Positions 9,173 through 16,359 of a stretch of DNA of 18,498 bases are shown here, piece after piece (within the stretch, counting starts at the first letter, position 1; each line of letters begins with the position of its first letter). A program made the position numbers and the translations under genes. Origin of the DNA: a virus (taxonomy: Duplodnaviria; Heunggongvirae; Uroviricota; Caudoviricetes); IMG/VR virus record IMGVR_UViG_2657245081_000006; one strand, given 5' to 3'. The notes under the pieces were generated by a model. That model was not told the DNA's origin and did not search any database. It was given only the letters and a program-made list of their open reading frames with translations.

Positions 9173-9393
9173 GCCGCACCTCCGAGATGCTTCATGTTTT
9201 TTCCGGAGCGAAAGGCTATAAGCGGCATACTGACGCGGTAATTACGGCCCAGCGGTTCACAAATCACCTTCTGACATTCACGGTCAACCAGGCTAACACG
9301 TAGAACATGCCCTGCAGGCGTGGTGTACCACTGACCGGGGCGAGGACAACGGAAAGTCTGATTGGTAAATCGTTTGAAAATATTCCGGATCAT
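9169..9393 (-). CDS. hypothetical small protein, 74 aa, translationally coupled between the Rha-domain gene and the O-like gene
   Basis: ATGA overlaps at both ends (9390-9393 and 9169-9172); no family recognised. Confidence 0.5.
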   Translation of the reverse strand: MIRNIFKRFTNQTFRCPRPGQWYTTPAGHVLRVSLVDRECQKVICEPLGRNYRVSMPLIAFRSGKNMKHLGGAA

Positions 9394-10538
9394 TTGCGCC
9401 CCCTTACCTCTGAAGAGTTCAGCGACGAATGAATAAGACGGGCAAGAAATGCCGCATCGTTAATTCGGTCATACAGACTTACAGCCAGAGGTGATTCAGC
9501 TTTTTCCAGCATGGGATAAAGCTGCTGCAACCAGACCTGATGAATTGATGAAATGTAGGAATAGAGAACGCTGGCGTTATGTGCAACGTCGCTCGGTACA
9601 GCGGGCTTTGAAAGCTGTTTCTCCATCTGGTTAAAGGCATTGATGTATGCCTCTTTGAACTGGGCAGCACGTTTACCCGTGAAACCCATAGCAAGAAACG
9701 CAAAGCCGTCGCGGGTTATTTGATAGCAAGGTAGTTTGCGGCCTGTGCAATCGGTGTAATCACTCACCGAAAAATTGCGGGCAGTGAATGATGCGGAACA
9801 TTCAAGCGTGCGGATCTTTTTCAGTACATCGTCATGACGTTTGGAGAAGAAGTTGGCAACAGCCAGGGATGAAGTAACAGCCTGACCATCAACGATGGCA
9901 ATTTCAGGTTGAGTGAGGGTTGGGATCGTAGCCATGATGGCAGTCTCCGATAACAGTGAATTACCTTCACCACCGGAAACGCCAATTTCGCTGGTGGTGA
10001 ACTGAACGGGGTTGGCGTAACCGGCGTTATCGGAAACCGGCGCACCTTTCGGTGCCCCCGTCCAGCCCACCATAATTTGGGTGTGCACAGACGCAGACGA
10101 TAAAAAAGACGCTGGCGCGTCATATATCGCCGATAACATTTCCAGGACGCCAATCCCGACACCCGCTTTATAAGGTGCCTGAACAGTGTAACGTCCCGGA
10201 ATGGCAGAATCAATGTGCTGGTGGTCCTTCACACTCAACAAAATCACGCCTGAATTTCCACAAAGGACTAAAGCACTCATGCGGGTAGTCTTTGCGAAGA
10301 TAGATAACGCGCTGTGTTTCTGGCTCCCAACGAATAACATGGACATAAAGCCCTCTTCCGTCACGAAACCAGCGGTTAAGTTCCTGCACAACTCGCCCCC
10401 CACAGTCAGGTAAAGTTCTCTGTGGTTACTTACAGCCAGGTGATTTGGTAATCTGCATTCATGCCGTAACAACAGGTGTTCAGCGACGCTGACCACCAGC
10501 TGTTGCGACAAACGGTTATTTGCCGTTAAACTGTTCAT
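9390..10538 (-). CDS. protein with C-terminal Rha (phage regulatory protein Rha) domain and an unrecognised about 200-aa N-terminal region, 382 aa; alternative start at 9935 would give a 181-aa Rha-only protein
   Basis: Residues about 211-308, IVDGQAVTSSLAVANFFSKRHDDVLKKI...YQITRDGFAFLAMGFTGKRAAQFKEAYINAFNQME, are the Rha signature. ATG 10536-10538 overlaps the cII-like stop (ATGA). Confidence 0.6.
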   Translation of the reverse strand: MNSLTANNRLSQQLVVSVAEHLLLRHECRLPNHLAVSNHRELYLTVGGELCRNLTAGFVTEEGFMSMLFVGSQKHSALSIFAKTTRMSALVLCGNSGVILLSVKDHQHIDSAIPGRYTVQAPYKAGVGIGVLEMLSAIYDAPASFLSSASVHTQIMVGWTGAPKGAPVSDNAGYANPVQFTTSEIGVSGGEGNSLLSETAIMATIPTLTQPEIAIVDGQAVTSSLAVANFFSKRHDDVLKKIRTLECSASFTARNFSVSDYTDCTGRKLPCYQITRDGFAFLAMGFTGKRAAQFKEAYINAFNQMEKQLSKPAVPSDVAHNASVLYSYISSIHQVWLQQLYPMLEKAESPLAVSLYDRINDAAFLARLIHSSLNSSEVRGRK

Positions 10539-11098
10539 GCGTTAGTTTCTCCACAGACACAAAACGCCACGACGCCCGGAGCTGCACACTCGCGGGCGTC
10601 ACTCTTTTCTGGAGCGCAAAAGATTTTGTAGACCAGTGCTGCATGCTCCTGGAGCTTCGAAATTGACAGATACAACTCATCATTAATTGCTGTCTGCTCG
10701 TGTGGCTCCACTACCCCATCTTCGATTGCCGAACGAATCTGCTTTGAGTAACTCCCGATCTGTTCGATGACTTCCAGCAGGCGCTGGTTTATATCGGCGT
10801 TCTCTACTTCCTCAAGTTCAGGAAGCGATACAAACACCCCACCAGCAGACTGTGCGACAGCATCCGCAATGTAGTGAGTGCCAGCCGCGCGCTGTAAAAT
10901 CATTGCCCATCCCAGCGGGAAAATCTGATCGCCATCTGCACGAAGGCGGTTGAATAAAGCGTTCTCTGTTACATCCAGCCACTCAGCAGCTTCAGCGTAA
11001 CCTCCCGGCAACGCCGCGATAGTTTTTCTGACAGCTTTCACGTACCACTCAGGCTGTTTTTCTACTTTCCAGTGATGCTTACCCACGGTTAGCCTCAT
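10535..11098 (-). CDS. CII-like regulator (YdaT / CP76-type CII family), 187 aa
   Basis: Second gene of the rightward operon directly after cro; size and helical C-terminal part resemble the YdaT-type CII analogs of Rac-like prophages. Confidence 0.6.
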   Translation of the reverse strand: MRLTVGKHHWKVEKQPEWYVKAVRKTIAALPGGYAEAAEWLDVTENALFNRLRADGDQIFPLGWAMILQRAAGTHYIADAVAQSAGGVFVSLPELEEVENADINQRLLEVIEQIGSYSKQIRSAIEDGVVEPHEQTAINDELYLSISKLQEHAALVYKIFCAPEKSDARECAAPGVVAFCVCGETNA

Positions 11099-11129
11099 CG
11101 TTCTGTGGTTAAAAATTGAAGGTGTTCTG

Positions 11130-11330
11130 TTAATCTTTCGGATAGATATCCGGTCTTAAGTCAGATTTCGTAATTGCACCTGACGTGCATTGCTCAAGTT
11201 TTTTAGCCAGCACAAAACTGGCTTTTTTATAACCATTGAAAACCAGCCGTAAGTAGCCTGGTGTTGAGCCAACTTTTCCGGCCAACTCGCCCTGCTGTTC
11301 TTTGGTTAAAGAGTCCCAATACGCTTTCAT
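11130..11330 (-). CDS. cro: Cro-like repressor (YdaS-type HTH), 66 aa
   Basis: MKAYWDSLTKEQQGELAGKVGSTPGYLRLVFNGYKKASFVLAKKLEQCTSGAITKSDLRPDIYPKD; GGAGG 10 nt upstream of the ATG at 11328-11330; divergent from cI. The 167-aa track ORF is an unsupported upstream extension. Confidence 0.75.
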   Translation of the reverse strand: MKAYWDSLTKEQQGELAGKVGSTPGYLRLVFNGYKKASFVLAKKLEQCTSGAITKSDLRPDIYPKD

Positions 11331-11420
11331 ACAATATGTACCTCCGATATACATATTACATGATTGAGATGAACCTTCAAGATACTTGTACCCTATCGGT
11401 ACAAAGGTTTTAATTTCGTT
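11331..11420. promoter_or_regulatory. OR region: divergent PR (toward cro) and PRM (toward cI) with palindromic operator candidates
   Basis: Palindromes ATGTA-N9-TACAT (11336-11354) and TTGTACC-N5-GGTACAA (11386-11404). PR on minus: -35 TTGAAG (11375-11380), 16-nt spacer, -10 TAATAT (11353-11358). PRM on plus: -35 TTGTAC (11386-11391), 17 nt, -10 TTTAAT (11409-11414), giving a near-leaderless cI mRNA. Confidence 0.55.
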
Positions 11421-12095
11421 ATGAAAACAGTCCATGACATCCGGCGGTCTAACGCCAGAAAACTGAGAGATGGTGTTGGCGGGAATTCTTCCTTTGCCAC
11501 CATGATTGATCGCGAGCCAACCCAGACCAGCAGGTTTATGGGAGATGGTGCTACTAAAAATATCGGTGACAGCATGGCACGGCACATCGAAAAATGTTTC
11601 GACCTGCCTGTCGGATGGCTTGATCAAGAACACCAGACAACAAACATCACAAAAAAACCTGATGTTTCAATTACTAACAAACAAATAACGTTAGTCCCTG
11701 TCATATCATGGGTACAGGCCGGAGCATGGAAAGAAGTTGGCTATTCTGAGGTTGATTTGAGCACAGCAGAAACTTATCCCTGCCCTGTACCCTGTGGCGA
11801 AATGACTTATATCTTGCGGGTGATTGGTGATTCAATGATTGATGAGTACCGCCCGGGAGACATGATTTTTGTTGATCCTGAAGTCCCTGCCTGCCACGGT
11901 GACGACGTTATTGCATTGATGCACGATACAGGCGAAACCACCTTCAAGCGGTTGATAGAAGATGGAACACAGCGTTACCTCAAAGCATTAAACCCAAACT
12001 GGCCTGAACCTTACATTAAGATCAACGGTAATTGCTCTATAATTGGTACAGTGATTTTCTCAGGAAAACCAAGAAGATACAAAATAAAGGCCTAA
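11421..12095 (+). CDS. cI: CI-like prophage repressor, HTH plus S24 (LexA-like) autopeptidase domain, 224 aa
   Basis: C-terminal VPVISWVQAGAW...RVIGDSM...PGDMIFVD...GDDVIALMHDTGETTFKRL is the S24 peptidase signature; N-terminal HTH; no SD, consistent with a leaderless PRM transcript. Confidence 0.9.
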   Translation: MKTVHDIRRSNARKLRDGVGGNSSFATMIDREPTQTSRFMGDGATKNIGDSMARHIEKCFDLPVGWLDQEHQTTNITKKPDVSITNKQITLVPVISWVQAGAWKEVGYSEVDLSTAETYPCPVPCGEMTYILRVIGDSMIDEYRPGDMIFVDPEVPACHGDDVIALMHDTGETTFKRLIEDGTQRYLKALNPNWPEPYIKINGNCSIIGTVIFSGKPRRYKIKA

Positions 12096-12106
12096 TCAAT
12101 ATTTAT

Positions 12107-12130
12107 AACCTGCTTCGGCAGGTTTTTTTA
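12107..12130 (+). terminator. intrinsic terminator downstream of cI
   Basis: aacctgc-ttcg-gcaggtt followed by ttttttt. Confidence 0.65.
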
Positions 12131-12133
12131 TAC

Positions 12134-12166
12134 TTGACAATGTACCCTTGAGATACATAATGTATC
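12134..12166 (+). promoter_or_regulatory. PL-like promoter with overlapping operator (OL)
   Basis: -35 TTGACA (12134-12139), 16-17 nt spacer, -10 CATAAT/ATAATG (12156-12162); operator ATGTA-N9-TACAT at 12140-12158 and a perfect 15-bp palindrome GATACATAATGTATC at 12152-12166. Confidence 0.6.
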
Positions 12167-12598
12167 TAAAAGAAACATAACACAGGCAAGATTAAACTAA
12201 ATTTGGTTGTAACACGGCGTATGGCACATGCGTCGTTAGCGGTCTGGGGACGTTAAAGGGGACAATCCACTCCTTGCTCGAGCAAACAAACCAGGTAGCC
12301 GGAATGTGCAAGTCAATGATGATGCTGATAAGACGCCTAACCAGCGTGGCGATTCGGTTTGACGCCTGGGAAGAGACCAGGGTGCAACGATGAGGGCATT
12401 TATGGAACCGCGACAAAGTGTGGTGCCGTAACTGGCTAAGTGCTCTCAGCGTTGTGGTGAATGCGCAGGCTGATGCGCGAAAGACATTGCAGCTATTGCG
12501 GAAAAGAGCTGTTCGGCGGGGCAATTAAACGCCCGTGAGAGTCTGAAATAACCGCAAGCCGGAGATCAGCACCGGTCACCACAACAGCCACTGCTTTG

Positions 12599-12646
12599 GC
12601 GGTACCAGTTTGTACACTTGCTTCCGGCTGGTACCGCTCTTTTTAC
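12599..12646 (+). terminator. terminator-like hairpin in the PL leader (10-bp stem gcggtaccag/ctggtaccgc, 19-nt loop, then TCTTTTT)
   Basis: Perfect 10-bp inverted repeat at 12599-12608 / 12628-12637 followed by a T-run at 12640-12644; the loop is long for a canonical terminator. Confidence 0.45.
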
Positions 12647-12733
12647 AAAACAGAGAAGAGCATCACCGGACGACGGGCTCATAACCCAATCCATCCGGGC
12701 GGCTGCCACCGCAGGTGTTCTTCTCTGTTTTGT
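12645..12733 (+). repeat. 15-bp perfect inverted repeat (acaaaacagagaaga / tcttctctgttttgt) enclosing 59 nt
   Basis: 12645-12659 is the exact reverse complement of 12719-12733; it lies in the untranslated leader just upstream of the first early-left gene. Confidence 0.7.
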
Positions 12734-12778
12734 GGAGAAACTAACCGACCTTGCAGGGTCGATATGATGAGGAGCAGC

Positions 12779-13144
12779 AAAATGGCTAGCGAACGCAGTA
12801 CTGATGTGCAGGCATTTATCGGGGAGCTGGACGGCGGCGTATTTGAAACCAAAATCGGCGCAGTTCTCAGTGAAGTCGCTTCCGGTGTGATGAACACGAA
12901 AACCAAAGGTAAGGTCTCGCTCAACCTGGAAATCGAACCATTTGATGAGAACCGTGTGAAAATCAAACACAAACTCTCATATGTTCGCCCGACTAACCGC
13001 GGGAAAATTTCCGAAGAAGACACCACCGAAACACCGATGTATGTCAATCGCGGTGGTCGCCTGACTATTCTGCAGGAAGACCAGGGACAATTACTGACTC
13101 TTGCCGGTGAACCTGACGGAAAACTACGCGCAGCAGGTCATTAA
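12779..13144 (+). CDS. YfdP-like prophage protein, 121 aa
   Basis: AGGAG 7 nt upstream of the ATG at 12779; followed by YfdQ- and YfdR-like genes as in the CPS-53 (KpLE1) yfdPQRST cluster. The 182-aa track ORF is an upstream extension through the structured leader. Confidence 0.65.
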   Translation, partial: KMASERSTDVQAFIGELDGGVFETKIGAVLSEVASGVMNTKTKGKVSLNLEIEPFDENRVKIKHKLSYVRPTNRGKISEEDTTETPMYVNRGGRLTILQEDQGQLLTLAGEPDGKLRAAGH

Positions 13145-13209
13145 TATCGTTCTTAATTAACTGATTATTTATCTCATCACTGAATATCTTTATATAGTGA
13201 GGACTGATT

Positions 13210-14034
13210 ATGTCTCATAACTTAGACGCAACCGCAATTAATCAAATCCATGCCCTTATTTCTGCTCAGGGTGTTAATGAAATCATCAGTAAGATTGGTG
13301 CCGATGCTGTGGCATTGCCTGAGAATTTCCGCATTCATGATCTGGAAAAATTTAATTTAAATCGTTTCCGTTTCCGTGGTGCGCTTTCCACTGCCAGCAT
13401 CGATGACTTTACCCGTTATTCTAAAGATCTTGCAGATGAAGGCACCCGCTGCTTTATCGATGCCGATAATATGCGTGCCGTCAGTGTGCTTAACCTGGGT
13501 ACTATTGATGAGCCAGGTCACGCAGATAACACTGCCACTCTCAAACTGAAAAAGACAGCACCGTTCTCTGCTCTGTTGTCTGTTAATGGCGAGCGTAACT
13601 CCCAGAAGTCACTGGCAGAATGGATTGAAGACTGGGCCGACTACCTTGTGGGCTTTGATGCTAATGGTGACACCATTCAGGCAACCAAAGCGGCTGCGGC
13701 GATCCGTAAAATCACAATTGAAGCGAACCAGACCGCTGATTTTGAAGATAATGACTTCAGCGGCAAACGCTCCCTGATGGAGTCTGTCGAAGCGAAGACC
13801 AAAGACATTATGCCAGTGGCATTTGAATTTAAATGCGTTCCGTTTGAAGGCCTGAAAGAACGTCCATTTAAATTACGCCTCAGCATTATCACTGGCGATC
13901 GTCCTGTACTGGTTCTGCGCATTATTCAGCTGGAAGCGGTGCAGGAAGAAATGGCTAACGAATTTCGTGATCTGCTTGTTGAGAAATTCAAAGACAGCAA
14001 AGTAGAAACCTTTATTGGTACTTTCACCGCCTGA
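13210..14034 (+). CDS. DUF2303-family protein (YfdQ-like), 274 aa
   Basis: Length identical to K-12 YfdQ and same gene neighbourhood; GAGGA SD upstream. Confidence 0.75.
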
Positions 14035-14698: not shown

Positions 14699-15276
14699 AT
14701 GTTTTCGAAATGGAAGGGTTTCTTCGCGGGAAATGTGTACCGCGAGATCTGAAAGTGAACGAAACAAACGCTGAGTACCTGGTGCGTAAATTTGCTGAAG
14801 CTGAGGCCAAGTGCGCGGCGCTGGCTGAACGTATCGAAGAGTTACAGACAAAACCTACGCCAGATTCGTTTGGCATCATCGGTGAAAACATTCGAACACA
14901 GGATAATCGAATAACGTCAGACCCTATGTTTTGTGTGTATCAAAAGCGCGAAATTGTTGTTGATGCTGATTATGACTATGACCGGATTGTCTGGGTTGAT
15001 GAAGATAGCAATGAAGCCAATAAACTCCAAAGTCGTCGTCTCGAACTACTTCATGAAAACTTTCGGGAACCACCAGAAAAATGGCGGCGCGTTGCTGTGA
15101 AAGATATTGATGAATTCGTTACCTGCTGTTTCACCGAACAGGGTTGTAAAGACTACCTGGCAGCCAATGGTCACAATCTTCGCTTGCCATTTATATATGT
15201 AAAAAGCGGTTTCAGGAACGCTGAATATATCGGCATAAGAAACTGGCTTGCTGGCATTCGCATCAAAGGAGAGTGA
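14689..15276 (+). CDS. hypothetical early-left protein with N-terminal coiled-coil-like segment (Ead/Ea22-like by eye), about 193-195 aa
   Basis: Starts at ATG 14689 or 14695 (ATGA overlap with the HD-gene stop); AEAEAKCAALAERIEELQ looks like a coiled coil. Family call is weak. Confidence 0.55.
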   Translation: MRMNVFEMEGFLRGKCVPRDLKVNETNAEYLVRKFAEAEAKCAALAERIEELQTKPTPDSFGIIGENIRTQDNRITSDPMFCVYQKREIVVDADYDYDRIVWVDEDSNEANKLQSRRLELLHENFREPPEKWRRVAVKDIDEFVTCCFTEQGCKDYLAANGHNLRLPFIYVKSGFRNAEYIGIRNWLAGIRIKGE

Positions 15277-15471: not shown

Positions 15472-16359
15472 ATGAATACTCTTACCAAAGAATGGTTACA
15501 GAACACGATTACCGGAATTGAGTCGATAATAGACGATAAATCGTTTGTATGTAGTGAAATAGCATTCGAAATAGGTGTGGTTAACAACATACTTACCGCA
15601 TTTAAAATTGCACTGGCATCGCTGGAAGCAGATCCAGTTGCTTATATTTTCAAACATCCGGCCGGGAAATTATTCTGGGCTTTAACTGATGAAAGCAATA
15701 AAGAGCAAGCTGACGTTATTCCTGTTTATGCTGCCGCGCCTGCGTCGGTTGTGCCGGATAATGCATCAGAGCCTCTTGCTTATGCTTACAAAGAGCTTAC
15801 GCCTGAGATTATGCGCAACCATTTAGCTGTATTCGAGCGATATGGAATAGCCCCAAACGATAGCTCTACCACAATTCAGGCACTGCGAATCGCGCTGGAT
15901 GGCATAGAGCGGAGCGGCGCCATGCTTCATGGTGCCGAACCTGTAAGCCAAACTTACAAGTTGCCTCCCCTGTCATCCAACGAAGTAAACGACGCGGCAT
16001 GGAAATTACGCAACATGCTTACTGAACACGGTCCTCTTAATGGGCGTCAGTTCAACAATCTGAAAGGTTGCTTCTATGAGGCATTAAAGGTCGCAATGCG
16101 CAACTATCCGGTAACTCCGGATAGTTGGATAAGCTGTAGTGATCGAATGCCAGAAATGGGAGAGCGACAATGCTATGCGTTAGCGGCTGACTTTAAAAAC
16201 AACTACCCGCCACACATCCCCAACACTCAGGTCGGCGTATATGGCGACTGGTTTAATGATGGCGATCCCACTTGGGTTGACGGTGATGGCGAAGACCTGT
16301 ATCTCAAAGAGGTAACCCACTGGATTCCGCTACCAGAACCGCCGCAGGAGGTGAAGTGA
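15472..16359 (+). CDS. DUF551-like phage protein, 295 aa
   Basis: C-terminal WISCSDRMPEMGERQCYA...THWIPLPEPP resembles the DUF551 motif common in lambdoid early-left regions. Confidence 0.65.
   Translation: MNTLTKEWLQNTITGIESIIDDKSFVCSEIAFEIGVVNNILTAFKIALASLEADPVAYIFKHPAGKLFWALTDESNKEQADVIPVYAAAPASVVPDNASEPLAYAYKELTPEIMRNHLAVFERYGIAPNDSSTTIQALRIALDGIERSGAMLHGAEPVSQTYKLPPLSSNEVNDAAWKLRNMLTEHGPLNGRQFNNLKGCFYEALKVAMRNYPVTPDSWISCSDRMPEMGERQCYALAADFKNNYPPHIPNTQVGVYGDWFNDGDPTWVDGDGEDLYLKEVTHWIPLPEPPQEVK

Follow-up and report, generated by a model that had tools for sequence, protein, structure and literature searches.

The immunity region of the DNA analyzed here (a stretch of 18,498 nucleotides, hereafter the window) is very probably a lambdoid prophage genetic switch of the e14/SfV type, with five predicted 17-bp operators that share the consensus (a)TGTACC-N5-GGTACA(t). 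It is effectively the same element as that of E. coli K-12 e14 and of Shigella phage SfV; the system is already known, and it is an ordinary lambda-style prophage switch. The lambda-like immunity region proposed in the original prediction was borne out, with the order cro <- PR/OR/PRM -> cI - terminator - PL/OL. The repressor and cro genes (cI, 11421-12095, plus strand; cro, 11330-11130, minus strand) are divergent and share a short intergenic control region of 90 bp. Several related predicted operators lie over PR and PRM, and a second set is located at PL. The features of the region are the following:

11130-11330, minus strand: cro-like gene, 66 aa, YdaS/HTH type, 65 of 66 residues identical to K-12 e14 YmfT (CroE)
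11337-11353: predicted operator OR1, TGTACC-TCCGA-TATACA, exact core match, weight-matrix rank 2
11353-11380, minus strand: inferred promoter PR, -35 TTGAAG (reverse complement of 11375-11380), 16-nt spacer, -10 TAATAT (reverse complement of 11353-11358)
11370-11386: predicted operator OR2, TGAACC-TTCAA-GATACT, degenerate, two-mismatch match, weight-matrix rank 6 of 18,448
11386-11421, plus strand: promoter PRM, -35 TTGTAC (11386-11391), 17-nt spacer, -10 TTTAAT (11409-11414), start 11421
11387-11403: predicted operator OR3, TGTACC-CTATC-GGTACA, perfect palindrome
11421-12095, plus strand: cI-type repressor gene, 224 aa, N-terminal helix-turn-helix (HTH) and C-terminal S24 self-cleaving domain
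12107-12131, plus strand: cI intrinsic terminator, AACCTGC-TTCG-GCAGGTT followed by a T-run
12134-12161, plus strand: promoter PL, -35 TTGACA (12134-12139), 16-nt spacer, -10 CATAAT (12156-12161), 11 of 12 consensus positions
12141-12157: predicted operator OL1, TGTACC-CTTGA-GATACA, exact core match, weight-matrix rank 1, occupying the PL spacer
12152-12166: 15-bp palindrome GATACATAATGTATC, where the right half of OL1 meets the left half of OL2, across the PL -10
12161-12177: predicted operator OL2, TGTATC-TAAAA-GAAACA, weaker, two-mismatch match, weight-matrix rank 4, over the PL start
12598-12644, plus strand: leader hairpin and T-run, predicted intrinsic terminator in the PL leader, arms 12599-12608 and 12628-12637

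Regulators and relationship to e14 and SfV

Both regulators and the control DNA are near-identical to the e14 and SfV references. CI shares 223 of its 224 residues with e14 YmfK (CohE) and is 100% identical to SfV CI. In the GenBank record of SfV, precisely the 69 bp corresponding to 11336-11404 are annotated as a putative operator region. OR, terminator and PL/OL are identically positioned in e14, SfV and the window, and a base-for-base alignment of OR and OL with K-12 shows only a few substitutions: the right half of OR1 is TATACA in the window and in SfV but TGTACA in K-12, the left half of OL2 is TGTATC in the window but TGTACC in K-12, and the N5 spacers differ. Beyond approximately 12195, the PL leader is a mosaic module that differs from e14. 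The region is present in 1324 of 5426 complete E. coli genomes.

The repressor combines an HTH domain, whose recognition helix is REPTQTSR, with an S24 domain that includes an Ala-Gly cleavage site and a Ser/Lys dyad, as expected for a lambdoid switch. The Pfam match is to PF00717 (E = 1.5e-26); no Pfam HTH family was matched by the N-terminal domain. Sequence matches in the PDB are to the C-terminal domain of lambda CI and to the N-terminal domain of SPC32H Rep. The AlphaFold model (mean pLDDT 78) has the lambda repressor 3bdn as its best fold match, and its C-terminal domain superimposes on 1f39 with a TM score of 0.81. The motifs VQAGAW, GDSM and TFKR are present, and residues Ala100, Ser138 and Lys176 are near-invariant; Gly101 follows Ala100 inside the VQAGAW motif of the window protein. 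For Cro, matches to PF15943 and HTH_3 are weak, both under the Pfam cut-offs. Our literature search yielded no data from binding, footprinting or reporter experiments on YmfK or YmfT.

A single operator register

The four palindromes that had originally been noted are present in the sequence: ATGTACCTCCGATATACAT (11336-11354) and TTGTACCCTATCGGTACAA (11386-11404) at OR, ATGTACCCTTGAGATACAT (12140-12158) and GATACATAATGTATC (12152-12166) at PL. That OR and PL have a single half-site in common, hence probably one binding specificity, was also borne out. The same prediction distinguished two operator classes with N9 and N5 spacers, perhaps corresponding to CI and Cro, together with a separate 15-bp site and long-range repressor contacts at the leader hairpin DNA. 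Depending on the arm length chosen, the palindromes can indeed be written in more than one way, but every site falls in one 17-bp register: ATGTA-N9-TACAT and TTGTACC-N5-GGTACAA are both forms of TGTACC-N5-GGTACA, and distinct CI-type and Cro-type sites therefore have no basis in the sequence. OR2 and OL2 had been overlooked.

The core TGTA-N9-TACA occurs four times in the 18.5-kb window, against 0.19 copies expected, and none of 200 shuffled sequences reached four; OR and PL hold three of these copies. When up to two mismatches to TGTACCNNNNNGRTACA are allowed, 11 matches are found in the window against 1.58 expected, and the search adds 11370-11386 and 12161-12177. A weight matrix was then derived from the homologous loci alone, leaving the window out, with the exact TGTA-N9-TACA sites as seed. 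Among the 18,448 positions of the window, the four best scores correspond to 12141, 11337, 11387 and 12161, and position 11370 is the sixth; as the matrix was seeded on the exact core, these ranks are independent evidence only as regards the CC/GG positions and the flanking bases. Neither the two-mismatch search nor the matrix yields a fourth consensus-like site between OR1 and OR2 (11354-11369). Stray core matches at 15942-15958 and 14830-14846 lie within coding regions and have low or marginal scores; we took them as chance, since one match is within chance expectation.

Conservation of the predicted operators

A protein search with the 88-aa N-terminal domain as the query returned fragments only and was repeated with full-length CI. 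The comparison set comprised 17 prophages of other genera, with CI proteins 73-88% identical to that of the window. Within about 5.6 kb, exact core sites occur in these prophages only at OR1, OR3 and OL1 (and at OL2 in two loci), and the distance between OR1 and OR3 is 50 bp in every one of them. Half-sites are invariant and N5 spacers vary freely.

Several more distant loci that keep the recognition helix as R-E/A-P-T-Q-x-S-R retain OR1, OR2 and OR3, with CI identities of 60% (Providencia), 51% (Salinicola), 43% (Morganella) and 42% (Salinivibrio). The layout of the three sites is likewise retained in Pseudomonas phage CF60a, where the N-terminal domain alone is shared (58%). OL1 keeps its place in the PL spacer in Providencia, Morganella and a metagenome homologue of 42% identity, the latter lacking a clear OR3. 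No such sites were found in relatives with an NSSYLSQV helix, or in those sharing the C-terminal domain alone (PY3, Lodos). Operator specificity thus goes with the DNA-binding domain of CI, the sites co-varying with its recognition helix. Cro homologues accompany the operator sites in all related loci checked.

Promoters and sites at OR

The start of PR would lie near 11345-11348. The position of this promoter and its TTGNNG / TAATAT-or-CATAAT pattern are kept in an alignment of 18 sequences; it was missed by the promoter scan as it matches the consensus at only 8 of 12 positions. An extended -10 was considered and is not claimed for PR, as TG directly adjoins TAATAT and is not one base upstream. 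OR1 touches the PR -10, with which the 11336-11354 palindrome had been said to overlap, and covers the inferred start together with the Shine-Dalgarno sequence of cro (GGAGG, reverse complement of 11341-11345). Both TGTACCTCC and TACA of OR1 are invariant in the 18 sequences, and OR1 is also found in distant homologues. OR2 is located over the PR -35, with its center at -43 from the PRM start, and adjoins OR3 with no gap. Shine-Dalgarno, -35 and -10 elements overlap OR1, OR2 and OL1 and in part confound the conservation seen at these sites.

The site at 11386-11404 does lie over the -35 of PRM, as had been predicted: OR3 spans the -35 and the spacer of this promoter (-34 to -18). Its half-sites are invariant or nearly so in the 18 sequences, and its N5 spacer changes in almost every genus. 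Five leaderless mRNAs were mapped by dRNA-seq, that of ymfK in K-12 e14 among them (PMC4681348), and this experimental result fixes the placement of PRM; the OR sequence of K-12 is near-identical to that of the window. The PRM start is the A of the cI ATG (11421), and the cI mRNA is leaderless. Transcription of a leaderless cI mRNA from the maintenance promoter is a trait of lambda, although not a universal one. In 16 of 18 homologues, 6 nt separate the PRM -10 from the cI ATG; the alignment shows no Shine-Dalgarno sequence before the cI start.

The terminator scan marks 11386-11404 as terminator-like, which would fit a reading of the palindromes as RNA or DNA hairpins, e.g., bidirectional terminators, instead of protein sites. 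We rejected this call for OR3, as the arms are strictly invariant and do not covary, and it is the loop that varies; no compensatory changes of the operator arms were seen among the homologues. Taking also into account that the imperfect sites OR1, OR2, OL1 and OL2 would make poor hairpins, and that the sites follow the recognition helix of the repressor, we give this reading almost no credence.

PL and its predicted operators

The cI terminator is annotated as such in SfV and in phage Ayreon and is found in most homologues. It is followed by PL, which is annotated as a promoter in Ayreon and whose start is predicted near 12168. TTGACA and TACATAATGTA are invariant in the 18-sequence alignment. 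OL1 half-sites are kept in these sequences (the right half being GGTACA or GATACA) with a variable spacer. OL1 and OL2 are 20 bp apart from center to center and together make up an inverted repeat of 79%. In 16 of 18 sequences, the OL2 left half reads TGTACC; the OL2 right half can be recognized (4 or more of 6 positions) in about 12 of the 18, the others having lost it. Since the right half is lost in about one third of the homologues, and the left half is absent from the Morganella and Providencia loci, OL2 may be dispensable or lineage-specific.

The 15-bp palindrome GRTACATAATGTAYC had been presented as an element of its own. It consists of the OL1 right half, TAA and the OL2 left half (in the homologues, GGTACATAATGTACC), and we consider it most probably an OL1/OL2 junction and not an independent element. 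A genuine separate site with inverted half-site polarity, recognized by another factor (Cro alone or a host protein), would account for the invariance of TACATAATGTA in 18 of 18 homologues and for the persistence of the OL2 left half even where the right half is lost. Nevertheless, the invariant core is the PL -10 (CATAAT), and OR has no GGTACA-N3-TGTACC, the junction being there a gapless GGTACT-TGTACC. As Morganella and Providencia moreover retain OL1 and the -10 without the second arm, such a separate site is very unlikely.

A further question is whether OR is bipartite, i.e., whether OR1, OR3 and OL1 are the true operators and 11370-11386 and 12161-12177 are kept as promoter elements only (the -35 of PR with its spacer, and the discriminator and start of PL, respectively). 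OR2 and OL2 have two mismatches each, the score of OR2 is just 5.5 bits and the conserved CAAG within it is the PR -35; OL2 shows poor conservation in its right half. On the other hand, TGAACC of OR2 is invariant in the 18 sequences despite its position in the PR spacer, where promoter constraint is small, and distant homologues (Providencia, Morganella, Salinicola and Pseudomonas phage CF60a) show the consensus TGTACC at that place. OL2, in turn, is fourth among the 18,448 positions scored and has the conserved left half described above. We regard a bipartite OR as unlikely, and five predicted operators are retained in what follows.

The leader hairpin

Operator-like words had also been reported in the hairpin of the PL leader, with the suggestion that the repressor might contact them. 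The words are there (GGTACC at 12601 and 12630, TGTACA at 12611), but their numbers are not above chance: the window contains three copies of GGTACC and two of TGTACA, where any given hexamer would be expected about 4.5 times. No operator-like 17-mer, conserved or otherwise, was found in the hairpin, where the best weight-matrix score is -15 bits. The hairpin stem covaries between genera, unlike the invariant operator arms: five of nine pairs change in a compensatory manner, GGTACC being replaced by GGCGTC/GACGCC, GGCATC/GATGCC or GTTATC/GATAAC. The loop sequence TTGTACA is not conserved. An identical hairpin is found in mEp460, beside a different repressor and immunity region without TGTA-N9-TACA sites, and the GGTACC stem is missing from most prophages that carry the repressor of the window type. 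An Rfam search of 11000-13300 (E <= 1) returned a chance miRNA match only, and the leader elements are not members of any curated RNA family. The hairpin is best read as an intrinsic terminator unrelated to the operators, and the scheme of two operator classes, a separate 15-bp site and repressor contacts in the leader is already contradicted by the comparative data; we consider it highly improbable.

Comparison with known switches and proposed mechanism

Conceptually, the region is one more lambda-style switch. It shares with lambda the gene order and logic, 17-bp operators, a leaderless cI mRNA transcribed from PRM, a tripartite OR (sites at the PR core, at the PR -35 and about -42/-43 of PRM, and at PRM) and a second operator set at PL, downstream of cI. 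The HTH N-terminal and S24 C-terminal domains of CI are also common to both, lambda CI being the best structural match. In contrast, the operator sequence is unrelated to that of lambda, and just two OL sites are evident in the window. Lambda operators are spaced 24 and 23 bp from center to center; by the same measure, the OR sites of the window are 33 and 17 bp apart, OR2 and OR3 abutting, and the OL sites 20 bp. The Cro protein is of the all-helical YdaS/HTH type, differing from the lambda Cro fold, the distance between OL and OR is about 0.8 kb instead of 2.3 kb, and neither an N gene nor a nut site was identified in the window.

HTH repressors, conserved outer half-site bases and a variable central spacer are shared with the 434 and P22 c2 systems, and 434 CI aligns with the window CI at 32% identity over residues 11-212. 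Their operators have another length and sequence: the 434 operator is 14 bp long and of the ACAA type, and that of P22 is 18 bp long. Rep of Salmonella phage SPC32H (PDB 5D50) is reportedly a tetramer freed by an antirepressor. Its C-terminal domain and induction mechanism are unlike those of the window CI.

In the mechanism that we propose, a dimer of the LexA-like CI (YmfK/CohE) would set one REPTQTSR recognition helix on each TGTACC half-site. With OR1, OR2, OL1 and OL2 occupied, PR and PL would be shut in the lysogen, while CI at OR2 (-43), placed like lambda CI at OR2 (-42), would stimulate a weak PRM, from which the leaderless cI mRNA would be produced. OR3 would mediate negative autoregulation and is probably the first target of Cro (YmfT/CroE). 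Repression would be lifted by RecA-stimulated self-cleavage of CI at Ala-Gly. The sites themselves are established, as are their enrichment, how deeply they are conserved and how they co-vary with the recognition helix, along with the domain architecture of CI and the leaderless ymfK transcript; we infer the assignment of proteins to sites, the binding order, cooperativity and PRM activation.

The OR geometry is kept from Enterobacteriaceae to Halomonadaceae and a Pseudomonas phage. The 33 bp between OR1 and OR2 correspond to about three helical turns, which would set both sites on the same face, and the 17 bp between OR2 and OR3 place these on approximately opposite faces. Simultaneous occupancy of OR2 and OR3, and pairwise cooperativity as in lambda, are hypothetical. 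From the abutting OR2 and OR3 sites and the three-turn distance between OR1 and OR2, a switch wired unlike that of lambda can be envisaged, in which occupancy of OR2 and OR3 would be sterically exclusive or cooperativity would act between OR1 and OR2 over three turns. We put this forward tentatively, as a rather unlikely possibility. If true, the switch would have a built-in either/or between activation and repression of PRM; we know of no studied lambdoid switch with such a choice.

The analysis corrects the grammar of the sites and separates the operators from an unrelated, RNA-level leader element. The resulting operator map (consensus, five predicted sites and promoters) is a direct basis for the design of experiments with YmfK and YmfT. 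The immunity type concerned is common: it occurs in roughly one in four complete E. coli genomes, and K-12 e14, the phages SfV and SfIV, and cdt-I and Stx2c phages have it as well. It governs SOS-inducible genes, such as that of the division inhibitor ymfM, as well as the induction of toxin prophages.

Organization of the immunity region

Reading of nucleotides 10500-13200 together with the ORF list shows that the gene order is that of lambda mirrored (cro <- PR/OR/PRM -> cI - t - PL/OL ->), with 90 bp between the divergent cro-like and repressor (cI) genes. The genes, promoters and predicted operators are as follows.

9390-10538 and 10535-11098, minus strand: CP76-type cII-like gene and large Ash+Rha-domain (antirepressor-like) gene, in the PR operon, left of cro
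11330-11130, minus strand: cro-like gene, 66 aa (sequence reading and ORF list)
11337-11353, 11370-11386 and 11387-11403: OR1, OR2 and OR3
11380-11353, minus strand: inferred PR, TTGAAG-16-TAATAT (sequence reading)
11386-11391 and 11409-11414, plus strand: PRM, -35 TTGTAC (inside OR3) and -10 TTTAAT, 17-nt spacer
11421-12095, plus strand: cI, 224 aa (sequence reading and ORF list)
12107-12124 plus T-run: intrinsic terminator after cI (terminator scan)
12134-12161, plus strand: PL, TTGACA-16-CATAAT, near-consensus sigma-70 (promoter scan)
12141-12157 and 12161-12177: OL1 and OL2
12599-12637, followed by TCTTTTT: leader hairpin, intrinsic terminator
Up to the next gene at 12782: PL leader, about 610 nt, without a convincing ORF

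The small Cro-like protein gives weak YdaS/HTH_3 matches in Pfam. The C-terminal domain of CI matches Peptidase_S24 (E = 1.5e-26), and no Pfam family was matched by its N-terminal domain. PDB sequence searches with CI retrieved the lambda CI C-terminal domain and UmuD/LexA and, for residues 1-76, the Rep protein of Salmonella phage SPC32H. In an AlphaFold model of CI (34-sequence alignment, mean pLDDT 78), the N-terminal domain is predicted to be helical (helices 4-19, 22-28, 33-40 and 50-59) and the C-terminal domain beta-rich; the best fold match of the model is full-length lambda repressor, the C-terminal domain matching 1f39 with a TM of 0.81. As Ala100, Ser138 and Lys176 are near-invariant in the alignment (Gly101 follows Ala100 in VQAGAW of the window) and the fold is lambda-like, RecA-stimulated self-cleavage is the expected induction route. 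A second, antirepressor-based route in addition to self-cleavage is conceivable. Among solved proteins, the one closest to the N-terminal domain of CI is SPC32H Rep, which is reportedly under antirepressor control. The phage cdtI counterpart of the Ash+Rha-domain gene is annotated 'putative antirepressor'.

A single operator grammar at OR and PL

Upon re-reading the sequence, all the palindromes of the original prediction were found at their coordinates; they are real and strongly non-random. Both OR palindromes and the first PL palindrome have in common the core TGTA-N9-TACA, which occurs four times in the window against 0.19 expected (0 of 200 shuffles reach four), three of these matches being at 11337, 11387 and 12141. 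The two spacer classes that had been proposed, ATGTA-N9-TACAT and TTGTACC-N5-GGTACAA, are one 17-bp site, TGTACC-N5-GGTACA, read in the same register with different arm lengths. When up to two mismatches are allowed, this site yields 11 matches in the window (1.58 expected) and brings in TGAACC-TTCAA-GATACT at 11370-11386, abutting the 11387 site without a gap, and TGTATC-TAAAA-GAAACA at 12161-12177, 20 bp centre to centre from the 12141 site. With OL2 recognised at 12161-12177, the 15-bp perfect palindrome GATACATAATGTATC (12152-12166), previously taken as an element of its own, becomes the OL1/OL2 half-site junction: it is composed of the OL1 right half, TAA and the OL2 left half, and spans the PL -10.

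With a weight matrix built from other-genus loci only, OL1, OR1, OR3 and OL2 score highest among 18,448 window positions, and OR2 takes sixth place; as the matrix was seeded on exact TGTA-N9-TACA sites, it is independent evidence for the CC/GG positions and flanks only. A/T flanks are mildly preferred in this homologue-derived matrix. The predicted map comprises three OR and two OL sites, with the consensus (a)TGTACC-N5-GGTACA(t).

The symmetry of OR1 reaches past the 17-mer (11327-11363, TCATACAATATGTA / TACATATTACATGA, 14-nt arms, 86% complementary) and takes in the cro start codon at one end and the PR -10 at the opposite end. Two isolated operator-like 17-mers in coding regions, TGTAAGCCAAACTTACA at 15942-15958 (exact core without CC/GG) and a two-mismatch site at 14830-14846 (6.4 bits), are probably due to chance.

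Operators and promoters

The position of PRM is fixed by the published leaderless ymfK transcription start: the K-12 e14 ymfK mRNA is one of only five leaderless E. coli mRNAs mapped by differential RNA-seq (PMC4681348), and the control region of K-12 e14 is nearly identical to that of the window. The predicted PRM +1 is the A of the cI ATG; the -10-to-ATG gap is 6 nt in 16 of 18 homologues, and a Shine-Dalgarno sequence is absent. The poor PRM -35 (3/6) fits an activator-dependent maintenance promoter. The inferred PR has 8 of 12 consensus positions, below the promoter-scan threshold; its position and pattern are conserved in the alignment.

As originally predicted, the palindromes overlap the PR -10 and the PRM -35: OR1 lies over the inferred PR start and touches its -10, and the PRM -35 is inside OR3, which covers -34 to -18 of PRM. 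OR2 lies over the inferred PR -35, its centre falling at -43 of PRM; lambda OR2 is at -42. At PL, OL1 fills the promoter spacer and OL2 lies over the start.

Conservation of the sites and the recognition helix

The sites were compared with those of 16 prophages outside Escherichia (genera include Klebsiella, Leclercia, Atlantibacter, Pantoea, Rahnella and Edwardsiella) and one metagenome-assembled enterobacterial genome, one genome per species being scanned; the repressors of these loci are 73-88% identical to CI. The core sites are conserved among these prophages with a related repressor. In all 17 loci exact cores occur, within about 5.6 kb, only at the OR1, OR3 and OL1 positions (in two loci at OL2 too), and OR1 and OR3 are 50 bp apart. 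Invariant alignment columns are TGTACCTCC...TACA, TGAACC..AAG and CTTGTACC.....G.TAC at OR, and TTGACA.TGTACC.....G.TACATAATGTA at PL/OL, while the N5 spacers of OR3 and OL1 vary in almost every genus. The one departure from textbook switches lies in the spacing, which is conserved: OR2 abuts OR3, and OR1-OR2 is 33 bp; speculatively, this could reflect different cooperativity rules.

As judged from sequence comparison, operator specificity tracks the recognition helix. Within the repressor family (protein search and alignment), the helix R-E/A-P-T-Q-x-S-R persists to an overall identity of about 42%. At all three OR positions, homologues from Providencia, Salinicola, Morganella and Salinivibrio retain (T)GTACC-N5-GGTAC(A), and OL1 inside a TTGAC-type PL spacer is kept in Providencia, Morganella and a 42%-identical metagenome homologue, the latter being without a clear OR3. 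The repressor of Pseudomonas phage vB_Pae_CF60a has the N-terminal domain alone in common (58% identity), its C-terminal part being different, and its OR layout is that of the window, with OR1 embedding the Shine-Dalgarno of the divergent gene and OR2 and OR3 abutting. No such palindromes were found at the loci of relatives with an NSSYLSQV helix (P0101, P0102), nor in phages PY3 and Lodos, which have the C-terminal domain alone in common. Distant loci carry the consensus TGTACC as the left half of OR2, an argument for reading the invariant TGAACC of the enterobacterial loci as a tuned operator half-site and not as promoter sequence alone. In CF60a (regions 1412-1503 and 2292-2410 were read), a different palindrome, CTGTATATACA, is present in two copies downstream of the repressor gene.

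That one repressor specificity serves OR and PL, as had been suggested, is borne out by the half-site common to both and by the sites following the recognition helix. Cro homologues are co-inherited with the sites, and CI and Cro sites are therefore inseparable by sequence; in lambda, 434 and P22, the CI-type repressor and Cro bind the same operators.

The PL leader is a separate module

Long-range repressor contacts had been proposed within the leader hairpin, a reading that we reject. Compensatory changes affect five of nine stem pairs among 11 loci, GGTACC/GGTACC being swapped for GGCGTC/GACGCC, GGCATC/GATGCC or GTTATC/GATAAC, and the loop, TTGTACA included, is unconserved. The hairpin contains no operator-like 17-mer (best weight-matrix score, -15 bits), and GGTACC occurs twice in it because it is a palindromic word within a self-complementary stem. 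Phage mEp460 carries the identical hairpin, yet its repressor, Cro and operators (TTGCGC-type palindromes) are different, and no TGTA-N9-TACA site is present in it. Between about 12195 and 12800, the leader shares 99% identity with that of mEp460; as homology starts just past OL2 and the immunity genes differ, the leader is a separate mosaic module with a recombination joint just downstream of OL2. In e14 and most other-genus homologues of CI, a different proximal leader begins ACAGGCAGGACGCCCACG.

The leader terminator is followed immediately by a conserved and strongly structured RNA element (12639-12762). Its long outer stem, ACAAAACAGAGAAGAGCATC / GGTGTTCTTCTCTGTTTTGT, surrounds two inner hairpins, of which the second carries an insert of variable length. 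Compensatory changes occur in 11 of 41 predicted pairs (11 loci, several genera), and no Rfam family matched the element. It may be related to the non-coding-RNA, transcription-termination immunity reported for SfV (Roberts et al. 2007, J Gen Virol 88:3187). The leader segment AAAAGAGCTGT (12502-12512) is 91% complementary to the terminator 3' arm and T-run ACCGCTCTTTT (12633-12643), a putative pairing that could act as an anti-terminator.

Relation to the e14/SfV switch

The region matches phage cdtI at 99% identity, a set of Stx2c phages at 98.7% and SfV at 96.8%; with respect to the K-12 cryptic prophage e14, CI is identical to YmfK (CohE) at 223 of 224 residues and Cro to YmfT (CroE) at 65 of 66. 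Of 5426 complete E. coli genomes, 1324 carry the immunity region, annotated ymfK/ymfT, at 95% identity or more, and some of them contain two or three copies. In the SfV GenBank record, exactly 69 bp matching 11336-11404 are labelled 'putative operator region' and the post-cI terminator is annotated too; the PL promoter is an annotated feature of the phage Ayreon record. From a comparison with SfV, Mehta, Casjens and Krishnaswamy (BMC Microbiol 2004) reportedly identified the binding sites of the e14 repressor and Cro. YmfK appears in the literature under the names 'SOS-sensitive repressor' (PMC8249747) and 'CI-like repressor' (bioRxiv 10.1101/2020.11.19.390815), and a literature search retrieved no biochemical characterisation of its operators. 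The system is an already recognised e14/SfV-type lambdoid switch, to which the present analysis adds a fuller predicted operator and promoter map.
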